Source: Enterobacteria phage vB_EcoM_IME341. Taken from it: 64,000 bases of DNA. How positions within the stretch are numbered: the stretch's first letter is position 1; each line of letters starts with the position of its first letter. The stretch is from sequence record MH051917. One strand, written 5' to 3'. This document shows, piece after piece, positions 3,142 to 18,228 of the stretch. The notes beneath the pieces were generated by a model. It saw nothing but the letters and a program-made list of their open reading frames with translations. It searched no databases and was not told where the DNA came from. Both the position numbers and the translations under genes were made by a program.

Positions 3142-4101
3142 ATGATGCTAGTTATTGGTTCTCGCGCACTGCACCACGCTGGTCTGATTGAAAATAAGTA
3201 TATCGAAAATTCTGATTGGGATTTCATTGCCGACCAAGGCTCATGGAACCACTTTAAAGCTCGGATGTTCGGCGCCCATGTACACGTTGACAATCCTGAT
3301 GTTCAGGCTTTCAAATGTATGCATAATGGTAAAGAAACCTATTTCGAAGCTTATATCGTCCGTGCTCTGACTAACGTACGTGAAATCACTGGTGAGCTCC
3401 AAGACGAAGATTTCACCTCAAGTTATCGTCTCCTGAAATATGCTGAAAATCGTATTAAAAAGGACCGTCTTACAGGTTTCTATTGGGCTACGCCTGATAT
3501 CTGTCTGGCTATCAAAACCTCTCATCGTTTCCTGAAGAATAATCCTTTCTTCTTGAAAACTATGTCCCACATCAAATACCTTCGTAATAAAGGTATCACC
3601 CTGAATGAAGAACTCCAGGAAATTATGCTGCAGCGTCAAAAAGAAACGTTGAGCTATTCCCACCCTAAATTGGATGTAAACAAATCATCGTTCTTTAACG
3701 ATACCATTTATACGCTAGACCACGACTCTATCCATGAAGCCGTGGCATTGGCAGGGCGCCCGGCATATACCTTTTATATGAAGGAAGGTTCTGAAGTCAT
3801 GACCTCTCGTGAGAAGTTCGAGGCTTTGCCTGAAGCTATTAAACTGGCTGGTGTATATGAAGAAACTTGTGTCCTGGCACTAGAACGTTCACAGGTTCCT
3901 AATGACTTCAATATTTCACCATCATTAAGTTTCTATATGGCTCTTGAGAAAGTGTGTACCTCAATCACTTCAGGTTGGTTCCGTGAGTACGCCTGGGAAA
4001 ACTACCAAGCTGTGGTTAATATGTACAAGACTTTAGGTGAAAACGACTACATCAAACGATTCCAAGATAACCATCATTTAATTCGTCCTTTCGAAAAATA
4101 A
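3142..4101 (+). CDS. hypothetical protein (weak nucleotidyltransferase-like N-terminus)
   Basis: in-frame ATG 3142 after SD GAGGAAAA; 319 aa; N-terminal VIGSRAL...SDWDF loosely resembles G-S...D-x-D. Confidence 0.55.
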   Translation: MMLVIGSRALHHAGLIENKYIENSDWDFIADQGSWNHFKARMFGAHVHVDNPDVQAFKCMHNGKETYFEAYIVRALTNVREITGELQDEDFTSSYRLLKYAENRIKKDRLTGFYWATPDICLAIKTSHRFLKNNPFFLKTMSHIKYLRNKGITLNEELQEIMLQRQKETLSYSHPKLDVNKSSFFNDTIYTLDHDSIHEAVALAGRPAYTFYMKEGSEVMTSREKFEALPEAIKLAGVYEETCVLALERSQVPNDFNISPSLSFYMALEKVCTSITSGWFREYAWENYQAVVNMYKTLGENDYIKRFQDNHHLIRPFEK

Positions 4102-5913: not shown

Positions 5914-6355
5914 GAAAGCTAAGGAATTATCGGCAGGTATTTTGTTCATGACTGTTGATAAAGAACTGGTCATGGGGCGTGTAACAGGCTCTCGTAATCC
6001 AGAGAATATGCGTCATAAATGGGACATTCCTAAAGGTCATGTCGAACCAGGCGAAGAGCCTATTCAAGCGGCAATGCGTGAAACCGAAGAAGAGATTGGA
6101 TTCACAGCATACGATCCTGCGTTCCTGAAAGACCTAGGTGAGTTCAAATATTCAAGCAATAAGAATCTACATCTGTTCTTATATACGGTGCCTGTGGAAC
6201 ACGAGCAGTTCAAGAATTGCAAATGTACGGCTTACCATACGTTCCCTGACGGTCGCACGATTCCTGAATTCGATGCGTTTGCCTTGATTAAACGTCCACA
6301 ATGGGAATATGTCATGGGTAAGTCGATGTTTAAGGTTTTAGATTCGCTCTTTTGA
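5906..6355 (+). CDS. nudE: Nudix hydrolase
   Basis: Nudix box GHVEPGEEPIQAAMRETEEEIG; immediately upstream of lysozyme e as in T4. Confidence 0.8.
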   Translation: MSKKAKELSAGILFMTVDKELVMGRVTGSRNPENMRHKWDIPKGHVEPGEEPIQAAMRETEEEIGFTAYDPAFLKDLGEFKYSSNKNLHLFLYTVPVEHEQFKNCKCTAYHTFPDGRTIPEFDAFALIKRPQWEYVMGKSMFKVLDSLF

Positions 6356-6363
6356 TATAAATA
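6356..6363 (+). promoter_or_regulatory. late promoter of lysozyme gene e
   Basis: exact TATAAATA 22 nt upstream of e start codon. Confidence 0.7.
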
Positions 6364-6385
6364 CCTCCTATACTCAGGAGGTATT

Positions 6386-6880
6386 ATGGATATTTTTGAT
6401 ATGTTACGTCAAGACGAAGGTCTTGATTTAAATCTTTATAAAGACACCGAAGGTTATTGGACTATTGGGATTGGCCAGTTGATTACCAAAAACCCTTCAA
6501 AAGATGTTGCTCGTGCCGAACTTGATAAGCTTATGGGCCGGGTTTGCAACGGTCGTATTACTATGGCTGAAGCTGAACAACTCTTTAACCGATCGGTTGA
6601 AAATGCTCGTAGAGCTATTCTGCGTAATCCTAAATTGAAACCTGTTTATGATGTACTGGACGAAGTTCGTCGTTGTGCTTTAATTAACATGGTCTTCCAG
6701 ATGGGTGAAGCAGGTGTAGCTGGGTTCACTAACTCTTTACGTATGCTCCAACAGAAACGTTGGGACGATGCGGCAGTTAACCTGGCTCAATCCCGTTGGT
6801 ATAAACAAACTCCTAATCGTGCTAAGCGCGTGATTTCAACATTTAAAACAGGTACTTGGAAAGCATATGAAAACTTATAA
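6386..6880 (+). CDS. e: endolysin (T4 lysozyme family)
   Basis: 164 aa; [13 protein letters not shown]...[13 protein letters not shown] closely matches T4 lysozyme. Confidence 0.95.
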
Positions 6881-7169
6881 TGAATTTATCACTGAAGCCC
6901 GCGTAACCGCAGGTAAATTAGAAGCCGCTGTAAATAAAAAGGCCCATTCATTTCATGATTTGCCAGATAAAGACCGTAAGAAACTTGTAAGCCTTTATAT
7001 TGACAAAGAGCGTATTCTCGCTCTCCCGGGCGCTAATGAAGGTAAACAGGCCAAGCCTTTGAATTCTGTCGAAAAGAAAATTGATAACTTTGCTTCTAAG
7101 TTTGGTATGTCTATGGATGACCTTCAGCAAGCGGCTACCGAAGCAGCTAAAGCAATTAAAGGTAAATAA
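6867..7169 (+). CDS. internal head protein (IP family)
   Basis: N-terminal [11 protein letters not shown] resembles T4 IP capsid-targeting sequence; T4 ipII/ipIII position. Confidence 0.65.
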
Positions 7170-7171
7170 CA

Positions 7172-7200
7172 GTTTACTTTTACAATAGCTGTGATATAGT
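7172..7200 (+). promoter_or_regulatory. early promoter upstream of denV
   Basis: GTTTAC -35 and TG-n-TATAGT -10. Confidence 0.5.
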
Positions 7201-7229
7201 GTTCTCACACAAACATGGAGAACACTAAA

Positions 7230-7646
7230 ATGACTCGTATTAACCTTACCTTAGTATCTGAATTGGCCGACCAACACTTAATGGCTGAATATCGCGAATT
7301 ACCACGTGTTTTCGGTGCAGTTCGTAAGCATGTTGCTAATGGTAAACGTGTTCGTGATTTTAAAATTAGCTCTACTTTTATCCTTGGTACCGGCCATGTT
7401 ACTTTCTTTTATGATAAGCTTGAATTTTTACGTAAACGTCAAATCGAGCTTATAGCCGAATGTTTAAAACGTGGTTTTAATATCAAGGACACTACGGTCC
7501 AAGACATTAGTGATATTCCTCAGGAATTCCGTGGTGACTATACTCCACACGAAGCTTCTATTGCTATATCTCAGGCCCGTTTGGACGAAAAAATTGCACA
7601 GCGTCCTACCTGGTACAAACATTATGGCAAGGCTATTTACGCTTAA
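7230..7646 (+). CDS. denV: endonuclease V, pyrimidine-dimer DNA glycosylase
   Basis: [27 protein letters not shown]... matches T4 DenV. Confidence 0.9.
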
Positions 7647-7688
7647 TTAAATCCGTGATAGAATACTTCTATCAACTTAAGGAATAAT

Positions 7689-7988
7689 ATGAAAACTTAT
7701 CAAGAATTTATTACAGAAGCCAAAGCTCCTAAAGCATTTCAAATTGGAGTTCAAGGCAATTTAGACCAAGAATATGTTGATGCTATTGTAGCAAGCCTCG
7801 GTAAACAGGGTGTACAAGTGGATTTTGTTGATTTTACCAAAGGTAATACTTTTAATATTGTTACATCTAAAGGTTCTTTAGCTAAAGTTAAAAAGGCCTT
7901 TGGCGTAGCACAAGCATATGAAATCGACCACTCCGAATTGGAAAATAAAGGTCGCCAGAACACAATTAAAGGTTCTGGTTCTTTCTAA
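7689..7988 (+). CDS. internal head protein (IP family)
   Basis: N-terminal MKTYQEFITEA capsid-targeting-like sequence. Confidence 0.65.
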   Translation: MKTYQEFITEAKAPKAFQIGVQGNLDQEYVDAIVASLGKQGVQVDFVDFTKGNTFNIVTSKGSLAKVKKAFGVAQAYEIDHSELENKGRQNTIKGSGSF

Positions 7989-13547: not shown

Positions 13548-13552
13548 TCAAA

Positions 13553-13578
13553 GGTCTCACTTCGGTGGGACCTTTTTT
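13553..13578 (+). terminator. intrinsic terminator
   Basis: GGTCTCAC-TTCG-GTGGGACC hairpin plus T6. Confidence 0.7.
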
Positions 13579-13587
13579 CGTTTAGGT

Positions 13588-13617
13588 GTTTACATCCTCT
13601 AGGAACATGATACTATA
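13588..13617 (+). promoter_or_regulatory. early promoter
   Basis: GTTTACA -35, TG-n-TACTAT -10, conserved GACCTATCAA downstream. Confidence 0.6.
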
Positions 13618-15151: not shown

Positions 15152-15604
15152 ATGATTATCAATACAAACTCTTGGCACGTTAAATTACACGACCGTTTTT
15201 ATGACCGTCATTCTCGACCGCACTCTTTATGTGCTTACTTCTGGAAAATGGTTTGGGCCTGTTTTGCTTGTGCTGTTGTTGCAGGTAGTACGCTTTTTGG
15301 ATTAACTGTTGCAGGCGCTGGTGTATTAGAGCATTTCTTTGTATTAAGTACCCCTGTTCTGTTGAGTCTAGGGTTTGTTTTAGGGTTGATTACGATAGCT
15401 CTTATTATTGCGCTATCCATTGGTTTGGCATTCGGTGCGATGAATTTACACGCATGGTATGATGCCCGTAGAGAAGAAAAGGAATGGCAACGTATTCAAG
15501 CTGAGCGTGAAGGCCGAGAAACTAAAGAAAACGTTGTCATCCAATATATTAAAGCTCGTAAATCTAAGGTCTGCCCTGTAATCCACTTCGAGAACAAAGA
15601 ATGA
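15152..15604 (+). CDS. hypothetical membrane protein
   Basis: 150 aa with multiple TM helices. Confidence 0.5.
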   Translation: MIINTNSWHVKLHDRFYDRHSRPHSLCAYFWKMVWACFACAVVAGSTLFGLTVAGAGVLEHFFVLSTPVLLSLGFVLGLITIALIIALSIGLAFGAMNLHAWYDARREEKEWQRIQAEREGRETKENVVIQYIKARKSKVCPVIHFENKE

Positions 15605-16611
15605 GAACAGTTATGAAAGGCTACTTCGGTAGCCACCTTTATGGAACAAGTACTCCGGAATCTGATGTCGATTTTAAAGAAATCTTTGTTCCACATCCGC
15701 GTGATATTCTGTTAGGTACGGCTATGAACCATACCAACCTGAATACGAATAACACCGCTTCCAAAAACACTAAAGATGATGTTGACCACGAGCTTTATAG
15801 CCTGAAATATTTCTTTAAACTAGCGGCTGAAGGCGAAACCGTTGCTCTGGACATGATTCATACTCCACCTGAACTGGTGGTTAAATCTGATTTACCTGAT
15901 GTATGGAAATTTATCCAGGATAACCGTTCACGGTTCTATACAACCAACATGAAAGCCTATTTAGGGTACGTCCGTAAGCAAGCTTCTAAATATGGTGTTA
16001 AAGGTTCTCGTCTGGCTGCTCTGCGTGGTGTACTGGCTATTGTTAACCAGATTCCTGAACAGTGGGTCGATTATCAAGAAGATGGTTCGACTAAGCAACG
16101 TCGCTCTAAGGTGGAAGATATCAAACATCGGCTCCCTGAAAACGAATTCTGTGAATGGGTATTCCATAACCATGAGAAAACAGGTCCTCAAACGTTTTAT
16201 ACTGTTCTCGGACGTAAATACCAAACCACTCTGTCATTAATCGAGCTCAAGCAATCTCTGAATAAGCTCGATGCGGAATATGGTGAACGTGCTCGTAAGG
16301 CTGAAGCCAATGAAGGTATTGACTGGAAAGCTCTGAGCCATGCTTATCGTGCTGGTTATCAGTTGAAGGAAATCTATCAAACAGGTGACCTGGTTTATCC
16401 GCTTAAAAATGCTTCTATTATTAAAGCAATAAAAGCAGGTGATATGCCTTTTAAAGTGGTCCAAGGGCTGTTGGAAAATATTGTTGATGAAGTCGAAGTC
16501 CTGGCTATCCAGGCTCATAAGAACGGTATGCCTGAGAAGGTAGATATGAAGTTCTGGGACAAGTTCGTTGAAGAGGTGTACCTTGACAACCACAACGCTT
16601 ATTACCGCTAA
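15601..16611 (+). CDS. pol-beta-superfamily nucleotidyltransferase-like protein
   Basis: N-terminal GSHLYGTSTPESDVDF fits G-S-x(9-13)-D-x-D NTase motif; 336 aa. Confidence 0.6.
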   Translation: MRTVMKGYFGSHLYGTSTPESDVDFKEIFVPHPRDILLGTAMNHTNLNTNNTASKNTKDDVDHELYSLKYFFKLAAEGETVALDMIHTPPELVVKSDLPDVWKFIQDNRSRFYTTNMKAYLGYVRKQASKYGVKGSRLAALRGVLAIVNQIPEQWVDYQEDGSTKQRRSKVEDIKHRLPENEFCEWVFHNHEKTGPQTFYTVLGRKYQTTLSLIELKQSLNKLDAEYGERARKAEANEGIDWKALSHAYRAGYQLKEIYQTGDLVYPLKNASIIKAIKAGDMPFKVVQGLLENIVDEVEVLAIQAHKNGMPEKVDMKFWDKFVEEVYLDNHNAYYR

Positions 16612-16806
16612 AGAAGAAATTAACGTCTTTCTATCGTATGGAAGACCTCATAAAACTCGACGTTGGTATCTTGAAGCCGTCTGTAAAGAAACCGGACGTC
16701 GAGTCAATATCAAGTACGCATGCAAACCTACGCCTAAACAGACAAGACGATTTGTTAACTGGGCTATAAATGATATCCGCTTCTATAATTTTTGGAGCGC
16801 AATTTA

Positions 16807-16828
16807 GGAACCTTCGGGTTCCTTTTTT
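16807..16828 (+). terminator. intrinsic terminator
   Basis: GGAACC-TTCG-GGTTCC hairpin plus T6. Confidence 0.7.
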
Positions 16829-16847
16829 GGGTTTAGTGCAAAAAGGT

Positions 16848-16877
16848 GTTTACAACCTCGTAGAGCATGATACTATA
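16848..16877 (+). promoter_or_regulatory. early promoter
   Basis: GTTTACA -35, TG-n-TACTAT -10, conserved GACCTATCAA downstream. Confidence 0.6.
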
Positions 16878-16924
16878 GACCTATCAAATAAATGAACTGA
16901 AACAACTTAAAACGGAGATACAAA

Positions 16925-17179
16925 ATGAATATTAAAGCACCTTTCGCCGGTAATGTTATTCGTGAAGATTCAATCGAAATCAACGGTGTGGTAGTTAAAG
17001 CGGTTTTAACTGATATCAAAACCCTGGTTAAAGTTGATTACTTAACCTTTAATTTCGAAAACATTGAAGGTTATATTAATTTCCCACCAAGCATTAAAAT
17101 GCATGTACGCCATGAAACTTGGTCTAAAGCAGATCAGCAAAAAGCAGTAGATTTTATTATTGAGTTCTTCTCAAAATAA
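16925..17179 (+). CDS. hypothetical protein
   Basis: 84-aa ORF downstream of early promoter cassette. Confidence 0.5.
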   Translation: MNIKAPFAGNVIREDSIEINGVVVKAVLTDIKTLVKVDYLTFNFENIEGYINFPPSIKMHVRHETWSKADQQKAVDFIIEFFSK

Positions 17180-17182
17180 GTG

Positions 17183-17210
17183 TGTACATATGCTTTAAAC
17201 GTGTTATTAT
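17183..17210 (+). promoter_or_regulatory. putative promoter upstream of AAA+ ATPase gene
   Basis: TGTACA -35-like and TATTAT -10; TGCTTTA MotA-box-like motif overlaps. Confidence 0.4.
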
Positions 17211-17247
17211 AGACCTATCAAATCTACTGAGTGAAATGGAGAATATA

Positions 17248-18228
17248 ATGTTAACTATCAAAATCAACAAAGGTATCTATCGCGGTAATGAAATCTCTGG
17301 TACGTTCATGAGTTCAGGTAAAACCTGGTTCCCTAATAAAATTCATGAATCCGAAGCTCACCTCGGTGATGGCAAGGTATTCGTACAGATTGATGGTGTT
17401 GAACGTGGTGTATGGGTGTTCAAATGTGACGTTGAAATGGAAGGTGCTGAAGCTCCTGTAGTGGTTACTGAATCCGCTGAAGAAATGAAACATCGCATCA
17501 ACAAACGTTTTAAAGTAATGAACATGATGACTAACGGAATCATCGATGGTAAAATTCGTTCCCTTATCATCTCTGGTGCCGCAGGTATTGGTAAAACGTA
17601 TTCTTTGGATAAAGCATTACAGAATGCCCATGAAAATGAAACTATCGAATATAAATCAATCAACGGAAAGATTAGTGGAATCGGTCTTTACGAGCAGCTT
17701 TGGAATAACCGCGGCCCTAATAGTGTTCTTCTTATCGATGATGTTGATGTATTCTCTGATATGGATATCCTGAACCTGTTAAAAGCAGCATTGGATACCG
17801 GTGAAAAACGTAAGGTGTGCTGGAGCACTTCAAGTTCTTACCTCGATGATAAAAATATCGATAAAGAATTCGAATACGAAGGCACCATCGTGTTCATCAC
17901 CAACGTTGATATTGACCGTGAATTAGAACGTGGAACTAAACTTGCTCCACACCTCCAGGCTTTAGTATCTCGTTCAGTTTACTTAGACCTCGGAGTTCAC
18001 TCTAACGAAGAGATTATGGTTCGTGTTGAAGACGTTATCCTGTCCACTGATATGATGCAAAACCGAGGTCTGTCTGATGCTGAGACCTATCAAGCTTTAG
18101 CATGGATGAAGGCTAATGTATCTCGTCTTCGTAACGTATCATTACGTACAGCTCTTTATCTAGCGGACTTCATTGCCACCGATAAAAATGACTGGAACGA
18201 AATCGCTGAAGTTACCCTTCTGAAATAA
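17248..18228 (+). CDS. AAA+/P-loop ATPase
   Basis: Walker A GAAGIGKT and Walker B VLLIDDVD; in-frame ATG 17248. Confidence 0.6.
   Translation: MLTIKINKGIYRGNEISGTFMSSGKTWFPNKIHESEAHLGDGKVFVQIDGVERGVWVFKCDVEMEGAEAPVVVTESAEEMKHRINKRFKVMNMMTNGIIDGKIRSLIISGAAGIGKTYSLDKALQNAHENETIEYKSINGKISGIGLYEQLWNNRGPNSVLLIDDVDVFSDMDILNLLKAALDTGEKRKVCWSTSSSYLDDKNIDKEFEYEGTIVFITNVDIDRELERGTKLAPHLQALVSRSVYLDLGVHSNEEIMVRVEDVILSTDMMQNRGLSDAETYQALAWMKANVSRLRNVSLRTALYLADFIATDKNDWNEIAEVTLLK

Follow-up and report, generated by a model that had tools for sequence, protein, structure and literature searches.

A long-clade RlaP-family nucleotidyltransferase, NrdC.11, and its possible role in phage tRNA repair

The nrdC.11 gene and its product

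A 64,000-nucleotide stretch of the genome of Enterobacteria phage vB_EcoM_IME341 (sequence record MH051917), referred to here as the window, was analyzed with a focus on the gene encoding the ortholog of phage T4 NrdC.11. The window corresponds to the early region e-tk-nrdC-55-47/46-45 of a T4-like coliphage from the Dhakavirus group, and its DNA is 91–95% identical to that of IME08, QL01, dhabil, and others. An initial annotation, made from the sequence alone, had placed a 336-residue nucleotidyltransferase (NTase) of the DNA polymerase beta (Pol-beta) type at this site, and the open reading frame (ORF) was found exactly as claimed (Table 1). The encoded protein shares 82% amino acid identity with its counterparts in T4, T2, and RB3 over all 336 residues. 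The T4 protein has the same length and motifs, and its gene has the same position between a mobD.1-like gene and nrdC.10. Deposited phage proteins are 98–100% identical to the ortholog (98.5% for Escherichia phage UPEC01 and 99–100% for IME341). A tblastn search retrieved 1,545 phage records, and an exhaustive HMMER search gave 3,167 clusters at 50% identity with E ≤ 1e-3, 816 of them with E ≤ 1e-30. Nearly all of the HMMER matches were full-length, to proteins of 310–350 residues.

Table 1. Positions of the nrdC.11 ortholog, its parts, and other features discussed in the text (window coordinates unless a locus number is given)
Feature	Position	Strand	Description
nrdC.11 ortholog ORF	15601..16611	+	ATG start, 336 amino acids plus stop; RlaP-family (PF10127) Pol-beta NTase, "long" clade
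GS/DxD motif	15628..15675	+	G10-S11...D22-x-D24-F25; hG[GS] plus two putative metal-binding aspartates
N-terminal NTase domain (~residues 1–115)	15601..15945	+	Predicted strand 2–9, GS turn, strand 23–30, hairpin with loop 49–60, strand 61–67, helices 68–85
D62 (V-D-H)	15784..15786	+	Inferred third catalytic carboxylate, from conservation, modeled strand, and alignment to D82
D84	15850..15852	+	Conserved acidic residue on predicted helix 80–85, followed by T88-P89; these pair with E104 and S108-P109, which are invariant in canonical RlaP
C-terminal domain (~residues 118–336)	15952..16608	+	Predicted helical bundle with beta-rich insert
Beta-rich insert (residues 154–208)	16060..16224	+	Poorly conserved, gap-rich in alignment; AlphaFold2 strands 154–158, 164–168, 184–191, 195–202, 205–208
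150-residue membrane protein (PHROG 944)	15152–15604	+	Stop overlaps nrdC.11 start (ATGA)
NrdC.10, P-loop ATPase	17182–18228	+	Conserved downstream neighbor in T4-like phages; PHROG 1250, function unknown
Hairpin, then promoter-like site	13550–13575; 13589–13616	+	Terminator-like; TTTACA-N16-TACTAT; consensus scan only
Hairpin, then promoter-like site	16806–16823; 16849–16876	+	~195 nucleotides past nrdC.11 stop; TTTACA-N16-TACTAT; consensus scan only
Second NTase candidate	3142–4101		Pfam DUF7277+DUF7275; PHROG 2141 "unknown"
Tandem long/canonical RlaP pairs	~6001–7800 of most loci		L016, L018, L020, L030, L034, L036, L041, L047, L051–L053, L055, L058, L062, L063, L066, L069, L072, L074–L077, L087
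SLOG-family genes	L002 11309–11683; L003 7348–7719; L006 6566–7075; L010 10323–10754

The whole protein matched PHROG 388 ("nucleotidyltransferase", E = 7.5e-130). The match to Pfam RlaP (PF10127) was limited to residues 8–134 and model positions 25–142 of 249 (E = 6e-11, 42.9 bits against a gathering cut-off of 23). PF10127 is present in the precomputed annotation of all listed homologs, and RefSeq names the ortholog "nucleotidyltransferase". T4 NrdC.11 itself lies in cluster 5 of the PF10127 similarity network of a December 2025 preprint, which describes it as an RlaP whose function is unknown (Carruthers, Fatma and Huang, 10.64898/2025.12.29.696909). The databases and literature already contain this gene, the family to which it is assigned, and the general hypothesis on its function. 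Many GenBank and UniRef entries (e.g., those of phages dhabil, dhaeg, P896, CLB_P2, JK38, and KP1) carry the label "thioredoxin", which was apparently carried over because the locus is named nrdC.11 and NrdC is a thioredoxin. Two stray names, "HNH homing endonuclease" and "ArsR family regulator", occur in one entry each.

The motif GSHLYGTSTPESDVDF is present, but at residues 10–25 rather than at residues 9–24 as first given. Its location at the extreme N-terminus was borne out, with the GS pair beginning at residue 10. A start at Met5 (giving 332 residues) is annotated for some deposited orthologs, so the distance between the N-terminus and the motif is 10 residues at most. By itself, the loose pattern G-[GS]-x(9-13)-D-x-[DE] does not exceed chance and is insufficient for assigning an NTase, because it occurs in seven plus-strand ORFs of the window, compared with 4.4 ± 2.1 ORFs after residue shuffling. 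When hydrophobic flanks were added (h-G-[GS]...D-h-[DE]-h), the nrdC.11 ortholog was the sole ORF of the window to match, with 0.35 expected.

Conservation was assessed in 145 homologs that are at most 50% identical to each other, and the structure was predicted with AlphaFold2 from a 67-sequence alignment (mean predicted local distance difference test score of 89; predicted template modeling score of 0.71). G10, D22, and D24 are 100% conserved and S11 is 99% conserved. Position 62 is Asp or Glu in 145 of 145 sequences, the adjoining D60 is 97% conserved, and position 84 is Asp in 97% and otherwise Glu or Asn. The model places these residues as expected for the Pol-beta superfamily, whose alpha/beta NTase fold it adopts: F9-G10-S11 comes directly after strand 2–9 (hG[GS]), D22-V-D24-F is at the start of strand 23–30 ([DE]h[DE]h), and V61-D62-H63 is on strand 61–67, as the h[DE]h of a third carboxylate. 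The initial annotation had suggested looking for this third acidic residue. We take it to be D62, because the residue is conserved, sits on a strand, and aligns with the invariant D82 of canonical RlaP. D84 was also considered and set aside, because it is on a helix and pairs with a different invariant position of canonical RlaP, a Glu. The active site, comprising G10-S11, D22, D24, and D62 plus the conserved D84, is thus predicted to be intact. Near-invariant residues of the C-terminal half are Y123, Q127, Y131, R137, R230, D241, W242, K243, H247, R250, P267, K278, and G280; this domain is clade-specific and rich in invariant basic residues.

The Pol-beta motif is considered real because Pfam RlaP, PHROG 388, conservation in the 145 sequences, and the modeled fold agree, and the assignment first proposed is supported accordingly. 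The two outcomes that had been named as fatal to it, catalytic aspartates that vary among homologs and a predicted structure with no Pol-beta fold, were both looked for, and in each case the opposite was seen. Searches of the PDB with the protein sequence and with the 67-sequence profile returned nothing relevant. We regard the fold and the assignment to the RlaP family as close to certain.

Long and canonical forms of RlaP

NrdC.11-type proteins, of ~320–340 residues, are a separate "long" clade of the RlaP family. When long and canonical profiles were compared with hhalign, only ~90 N-terminal columns aligned (probability 52%, E = 1.5e-4), pairing G10-S11 with G31-S32, D22 with D43, D24 with D45, D62 with D82, D84 with E104, and T88-P89 with S108-P109. 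The GS pair, DxD, the third Asp, and the helix E/D plus [ST]P are therefore common to both forms. The C-terminal 200 residues of the long clade had no similarity to the canonical C-terminal half that hhalign could detect, although the two Pseudomonas RlaPs (PfRlaP and PaRlaP), judged by their published description, likewise have the NTase domain at the N-terminus and a helical domain at the C-terminus. NrdC.11 is ~70 residues longer than canonical RlaP, with an extra loop at residues 49–60 and the beta-rich insert at residues 154–208. The published account of the PfRlaP structure, with which the model was compared by description only, mentions no such insert. The motif of the long clade is at the extreme N-terminus because the ~20-residue N-terminal helix found in canonical RlaP is missing. 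The two forms differ in their phage distribution. Canonical RlaP was found in only 78 phage records, mainly of Pseudomonas jumbo phages, and in none of the T4-like phages, which have the long form alone.

Relatives of NrdC.11 are also encoded by cellular genomes, where both forms occur in RNA-repair gene neighborhoods. When one genome per prokaryotic species was scanned, 80 loci with full-length relatives were found (26–52% identity), mostly in Alphaproteobacteria. All ORFs within 6 kb were clustered for the 70 loci that span 7 kb or more, and unrelated housekeeping genes are left aside in what follows. Half of these loci (35/70) have an RNA-repair neighbor from one of five recurrent clusters: canonical RlaP (26 loci), Pnkp (7), Hen1 (5), an HD-domain protein (5), and RtcB (3). 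The neighboring canonical RlaP is full-length (Pfam positions 2–248 of 249, E down to 4e-75), and the bacterial Pnkp has kinase, phosphatase, and ligase domains. A scan of the immediate upstream genes added a T4 Rnl1-type ligase at one locus and RtcA at another.

Canonical RlaP lies immediately 3' of the long RlaP gene in these tandem pairs (Table 1), and the pair is often downstream of Hen1-Pnkp or near RtcB. The order Hen1, Pnkp, long RlaP, canonical RlaP is typical and is seen, for example, in Asticcacaulis solisilvae (L087). Of 24 pairs, 16 have a canonical gene whose start is 4 nucleotides ahead of the long gene's stop, and the catalytic residues are kept in both members. No description of this tandem arrangement was found in the RlaP preprint or in the accessible literature, which excludes the founding paper (Burroughs & Aravind 2016). 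The existence of a long clade that is paired in bacteria and stands alone in T4-like phages may be a new point. It bears on how the phage protein is interpreted below.

A proposed role in tRNA repair

RNA repair was discovered in T4, where Pnkp and Rnl1 undo the cut that PrrC makes in tRNA-Lys, and RloC-type nucleases have been proposed as the host answer to this repair. RloC also removes a nucleotide, so simple religation would give a dead tRNA. Our preferred reading, held with moderate confidence, is that NrdC.11 adds nucleotides to RNA 3'-OH ends and thereby supports phage tRNA repair together with Pnkp and Rnl1. Its parts differ in strength: an RNA 3' end is a fairly likely substrate, and a role directed specifically against RloC is roughly a coin toss. 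As we envisage it, D22, D24, and D62 would hold two divalent metal ions, and one or two nucleoside monophosphates (NMPs) would be transferred without a template from nucleoside triphosphates (NTPs) to the 3'-OH of a broken RNA. The most likely targets would be the 5' halves of tRNAs that were cut and then trimmed by one nucleotide by RloC-type host anticodon nucleases. Phage Pnkp would heal the ends, Rnl1 (or Rnl2) would seal the break, and some of the repaired tRNAs would regain full length. If this is true, NrdC.11 would become a third enzyme of the classical T4 repair pathway and close one loop of an arms race; its gene has been conserved in over 1,500 phages sequenced to date. In this scenario nrdC.11 would count among the early, non-essential counter-defense genes. 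The segment from nrdC.11 to mobD.3 was lost in a viable genome-reduced T4 and is dispensable in the laboratory (PMC9825161).

The biochemical precedent comes from Pseudomonas. PfRlaP and PaRlaP, both of cluster 1a, add one or two NMPs to RNA 3'-OH ends (10.64898/2025.12.29.696909). They use any NTP and also dATP as donor, prefer Mn2+, and do not act on DNA or protein (10.64898/2025.12.29.696909). After RlaP treatment, a tRNA that is missing one anticodon-loop nucleotide can be aminoacylated again, and the enzyme has been proposed as an antidote to nucleotide-removing ribotoxins such as RloC (10.64898/2025.12.29.696909). The same prediction was made for jumbo phages, in which RlaP and RNA ligases were reported to have parallel distributions (Iyer et al. 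2021, PMC7824862). The RNA-repair neighborhoods of the cellular long-clade loci also favor such a role. Among phages, a homolog on the metagenomic contig L007 is flanked by the gene for an Rnl1-type ligase and that for another RNA ligase, and Phaeobacter phage MD18 has its homolog within its tRNA gene cluster. IME08, the closest annotated relative, encodes both Pnkp (pseT) and Rnl1 (rnlA), and the numbers of phage records per genus are nearly identical for NrdC.11-like proteins, Pnkp, and Rnl1.

Several observations weigh against such a function. We know of no RloC-type nuclease that has been shown to restrict these phages. No tRNA gene, RNA ligase, or Pnkp was found in the window, and in IME08 the pseT and rnlA genes are ~90 kb away from nrdC.11. 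The per-genus co-occurrence is weak evidence and is confounded by ancestry, because all three genes are in the conserved set of one lineage (Straboviridae). The best structural match of the NrdC.11 model is HalB, a synthase of a DNA-oligonucleotide signal. The RlaPs that have been characterized belong to canonical cluster 1a and not to the long clade (10.64898/2025.12.29.696909). The determinants of substrate binding in the long clade may differ from those of canonical RlaP, because only the ~90 N-terminal columns align between the two. Finally, the bacterial loci suggest that the long and canonical forms are not equivalent, because they are usually paired and the canonical partner is catalytically intact.

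This last point leads to a second explanation, in which the long proteins would be functionally distinct enzymes, more than divergent RlaPs, and would divide the labor with canonical RlaP, and T4-like phages would have kept the long form alone as a dedicated weapon against nucleotide-excising anticodon nucleases. The two enzymes may differ in nucleotide or end specificity, or may form a heteromer. A division of labor between two enzymes is suggested because their genes are translationally coupled, both active sites are intact, and the pairs are found inside Hen1-Pnkp or RtcB operons. We regard this explanation as tentative.

A related alternative keeps the chemistry and changes the target, such that NrdC.11 would act in the manner of CCA repair on the 3' acceptor end of tRNA, or on other RNA 3' ends. 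The homolog of Phaeobacter phage MD18 (L002 1938–12871; the gene is at 5989–6978) is surrounded by more than 20 clustered tRNA genes, as fits this alternative, and in a related metagenomic phage the homolog is likewise placed among tRNA genes. The related contig L010 has a similar gappy layout. The homolog of Ruegeria phage RpAliso is labeled "tRNA nucleotidyltransferase", although by annotation only, and when bacterial RlaPs are given total RNA, full-length tRNAs and rRNAs become labeled (10.64898/2025.12.29.696909). Against it, the cellular relatives adjoin enzymes that act on internal breaks (Pnkp, Hen1, RtcB, and an Rnl1-type ligase), and no CCA-adding family or PolyA_pol-type head domain was matched in Pfam or NCBIfam at E ≤ 0.1. 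With a mimic of cleaved tRNA, moreover, RlaP acted preferentially on the 5' half, at its 3' end, and less on the acceptor end (10.64898/2025.12.29.696909). We consider a target of this kind unlikely.

Nucleotidylation of a protein is very unlikely. NrdC.11 would in this case, for example, AMPylate and so neutralize a HEPN-type RNase toxin of the host, like the MntA antitoxins, or modify another host protein in the manner of DrrA or GlnE. The only NCBIfam hit was a sub-threshold one to MntA (13.3 bits against a cut-off of 60), and no HEPN toxin gene adjoining nrdC.11 was identified among the neighbors scanned with Pfam and PHROG. About as improbable is the synthesis of a free nucleotide or oligonucleotide signal, like those of CD-NTase/OAS enzymes or Hailong HalB, possibly as a decoy that keeps a host effector off. 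The structural match to HalB points in this direction, but HalB and the minimal or KNTase-type NTases (3c18, ANT(4'), LinB, and MNT) are only 9–13% identical to NrdC.11 and have no family-level sequence match to it. Nothing in the gene context of nrdC.11 supports the substrates of such enzymes (dATP for oligomerization, aminoglycosides, lincosamides, and HEPN toxins). A PADLOC scan of the ortholog gave no match, and neither a match to a defense-system NTase profile nor a cGAS-like fold, which would mark a CD-NTase, cGAS, or OAS enzyme, was found. None of these three alternatives, acceptor-end repair included, has specific support. The weakest explanation, a chance motif in a protein that is not an active nucleotidyltransferase, draws on the near-chance frequency of the loose pattern in the window and is effectively refuted by the family hidden Markov models, the strict conservation of catalytic residues in divergent homologs, and the predicted fold; its probability is close to nil.

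Neighboring genes and a second candidate

In the window, nrdC.11 is accompanied by genes for a T4 mobD.1/y05I-like protein, a small membrane protein, and the AAA ATPase NrdC.10. The arrangement differs from that of T4 and RB3, where the mobD homing endonuclease gene is immediately upstream of nrdC.11; here the small membrane-protein gene takes that place. The true start of NrdC.10 is probably downstream of the GTG at 17182, because the PHROG match begins at residue 23. Sub-threshold matches of NrdC.10 were to AAA_14/AAA_22, novel STAND NTPase, and clamp-loader models. Compared with T4, IME341 has an extra segment of ~570 nucleotides before nrdC.10, containing a terminator-like hairpin, a promoter-like site, and an 84-residue ORF (16925–17179) that had no family match. 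The spacing between nrdC.11 and nrdC.10 is ~570 nucleotides here (16612–17181) versus 21 nucleotides in IME08.

The promoter-like site in this segment has a counterpart upstream of nrdC.11 (Table 1). Both sites have the same hexamers and spacing, a TG before the -10 hexamer, and a position ~14–26 nucleotides past a hairpin. They look like repeated terminator-promoter modules between blocks of early genes, and nrdC.11 is probably the last gene of a transcription unit bounded by them (13550–13616 and 16806–16876). Promoter-like sites were no more frequent in the consensus scan than in shuffled sequence, and for this reason we only infer these bounds.

The second ORF that the initial annotation had put forward as an NTase held up as a candidate. 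It is predicted to have a MenT/AbiEii-like NTase fold with an invariant GS..DxD..E arrangement, in which G6, S7, D25, D27, and E69 are unchanged in 41 homologs down to 45% identity. This protein is less annotated than the nrdC.11 ortholog, and no mention of DUF7277 or DUF7275 was found in the literature searched. The possibility that DUF7275, which forms its C-terminal half, is an HD phosphohydrolase received no support: the hhalign probability against HD_4 proteins was 0.1%, and a profile search of the PDB was empty.

No SLOG-family gene was found near nrdC.11 in the window. A small gene of this family (Pfam YAcAr or YpsA) is located 0.3–5 kb from the gene for the NrdC.11-like protein in four distantly related contigs of phage or phage-like type, namely those of Phaeobacter phage MD18 and Vibrio phage K491, a contig of a Hydrogenophaga metagenome-assembled genome, and a metagenomic contig.

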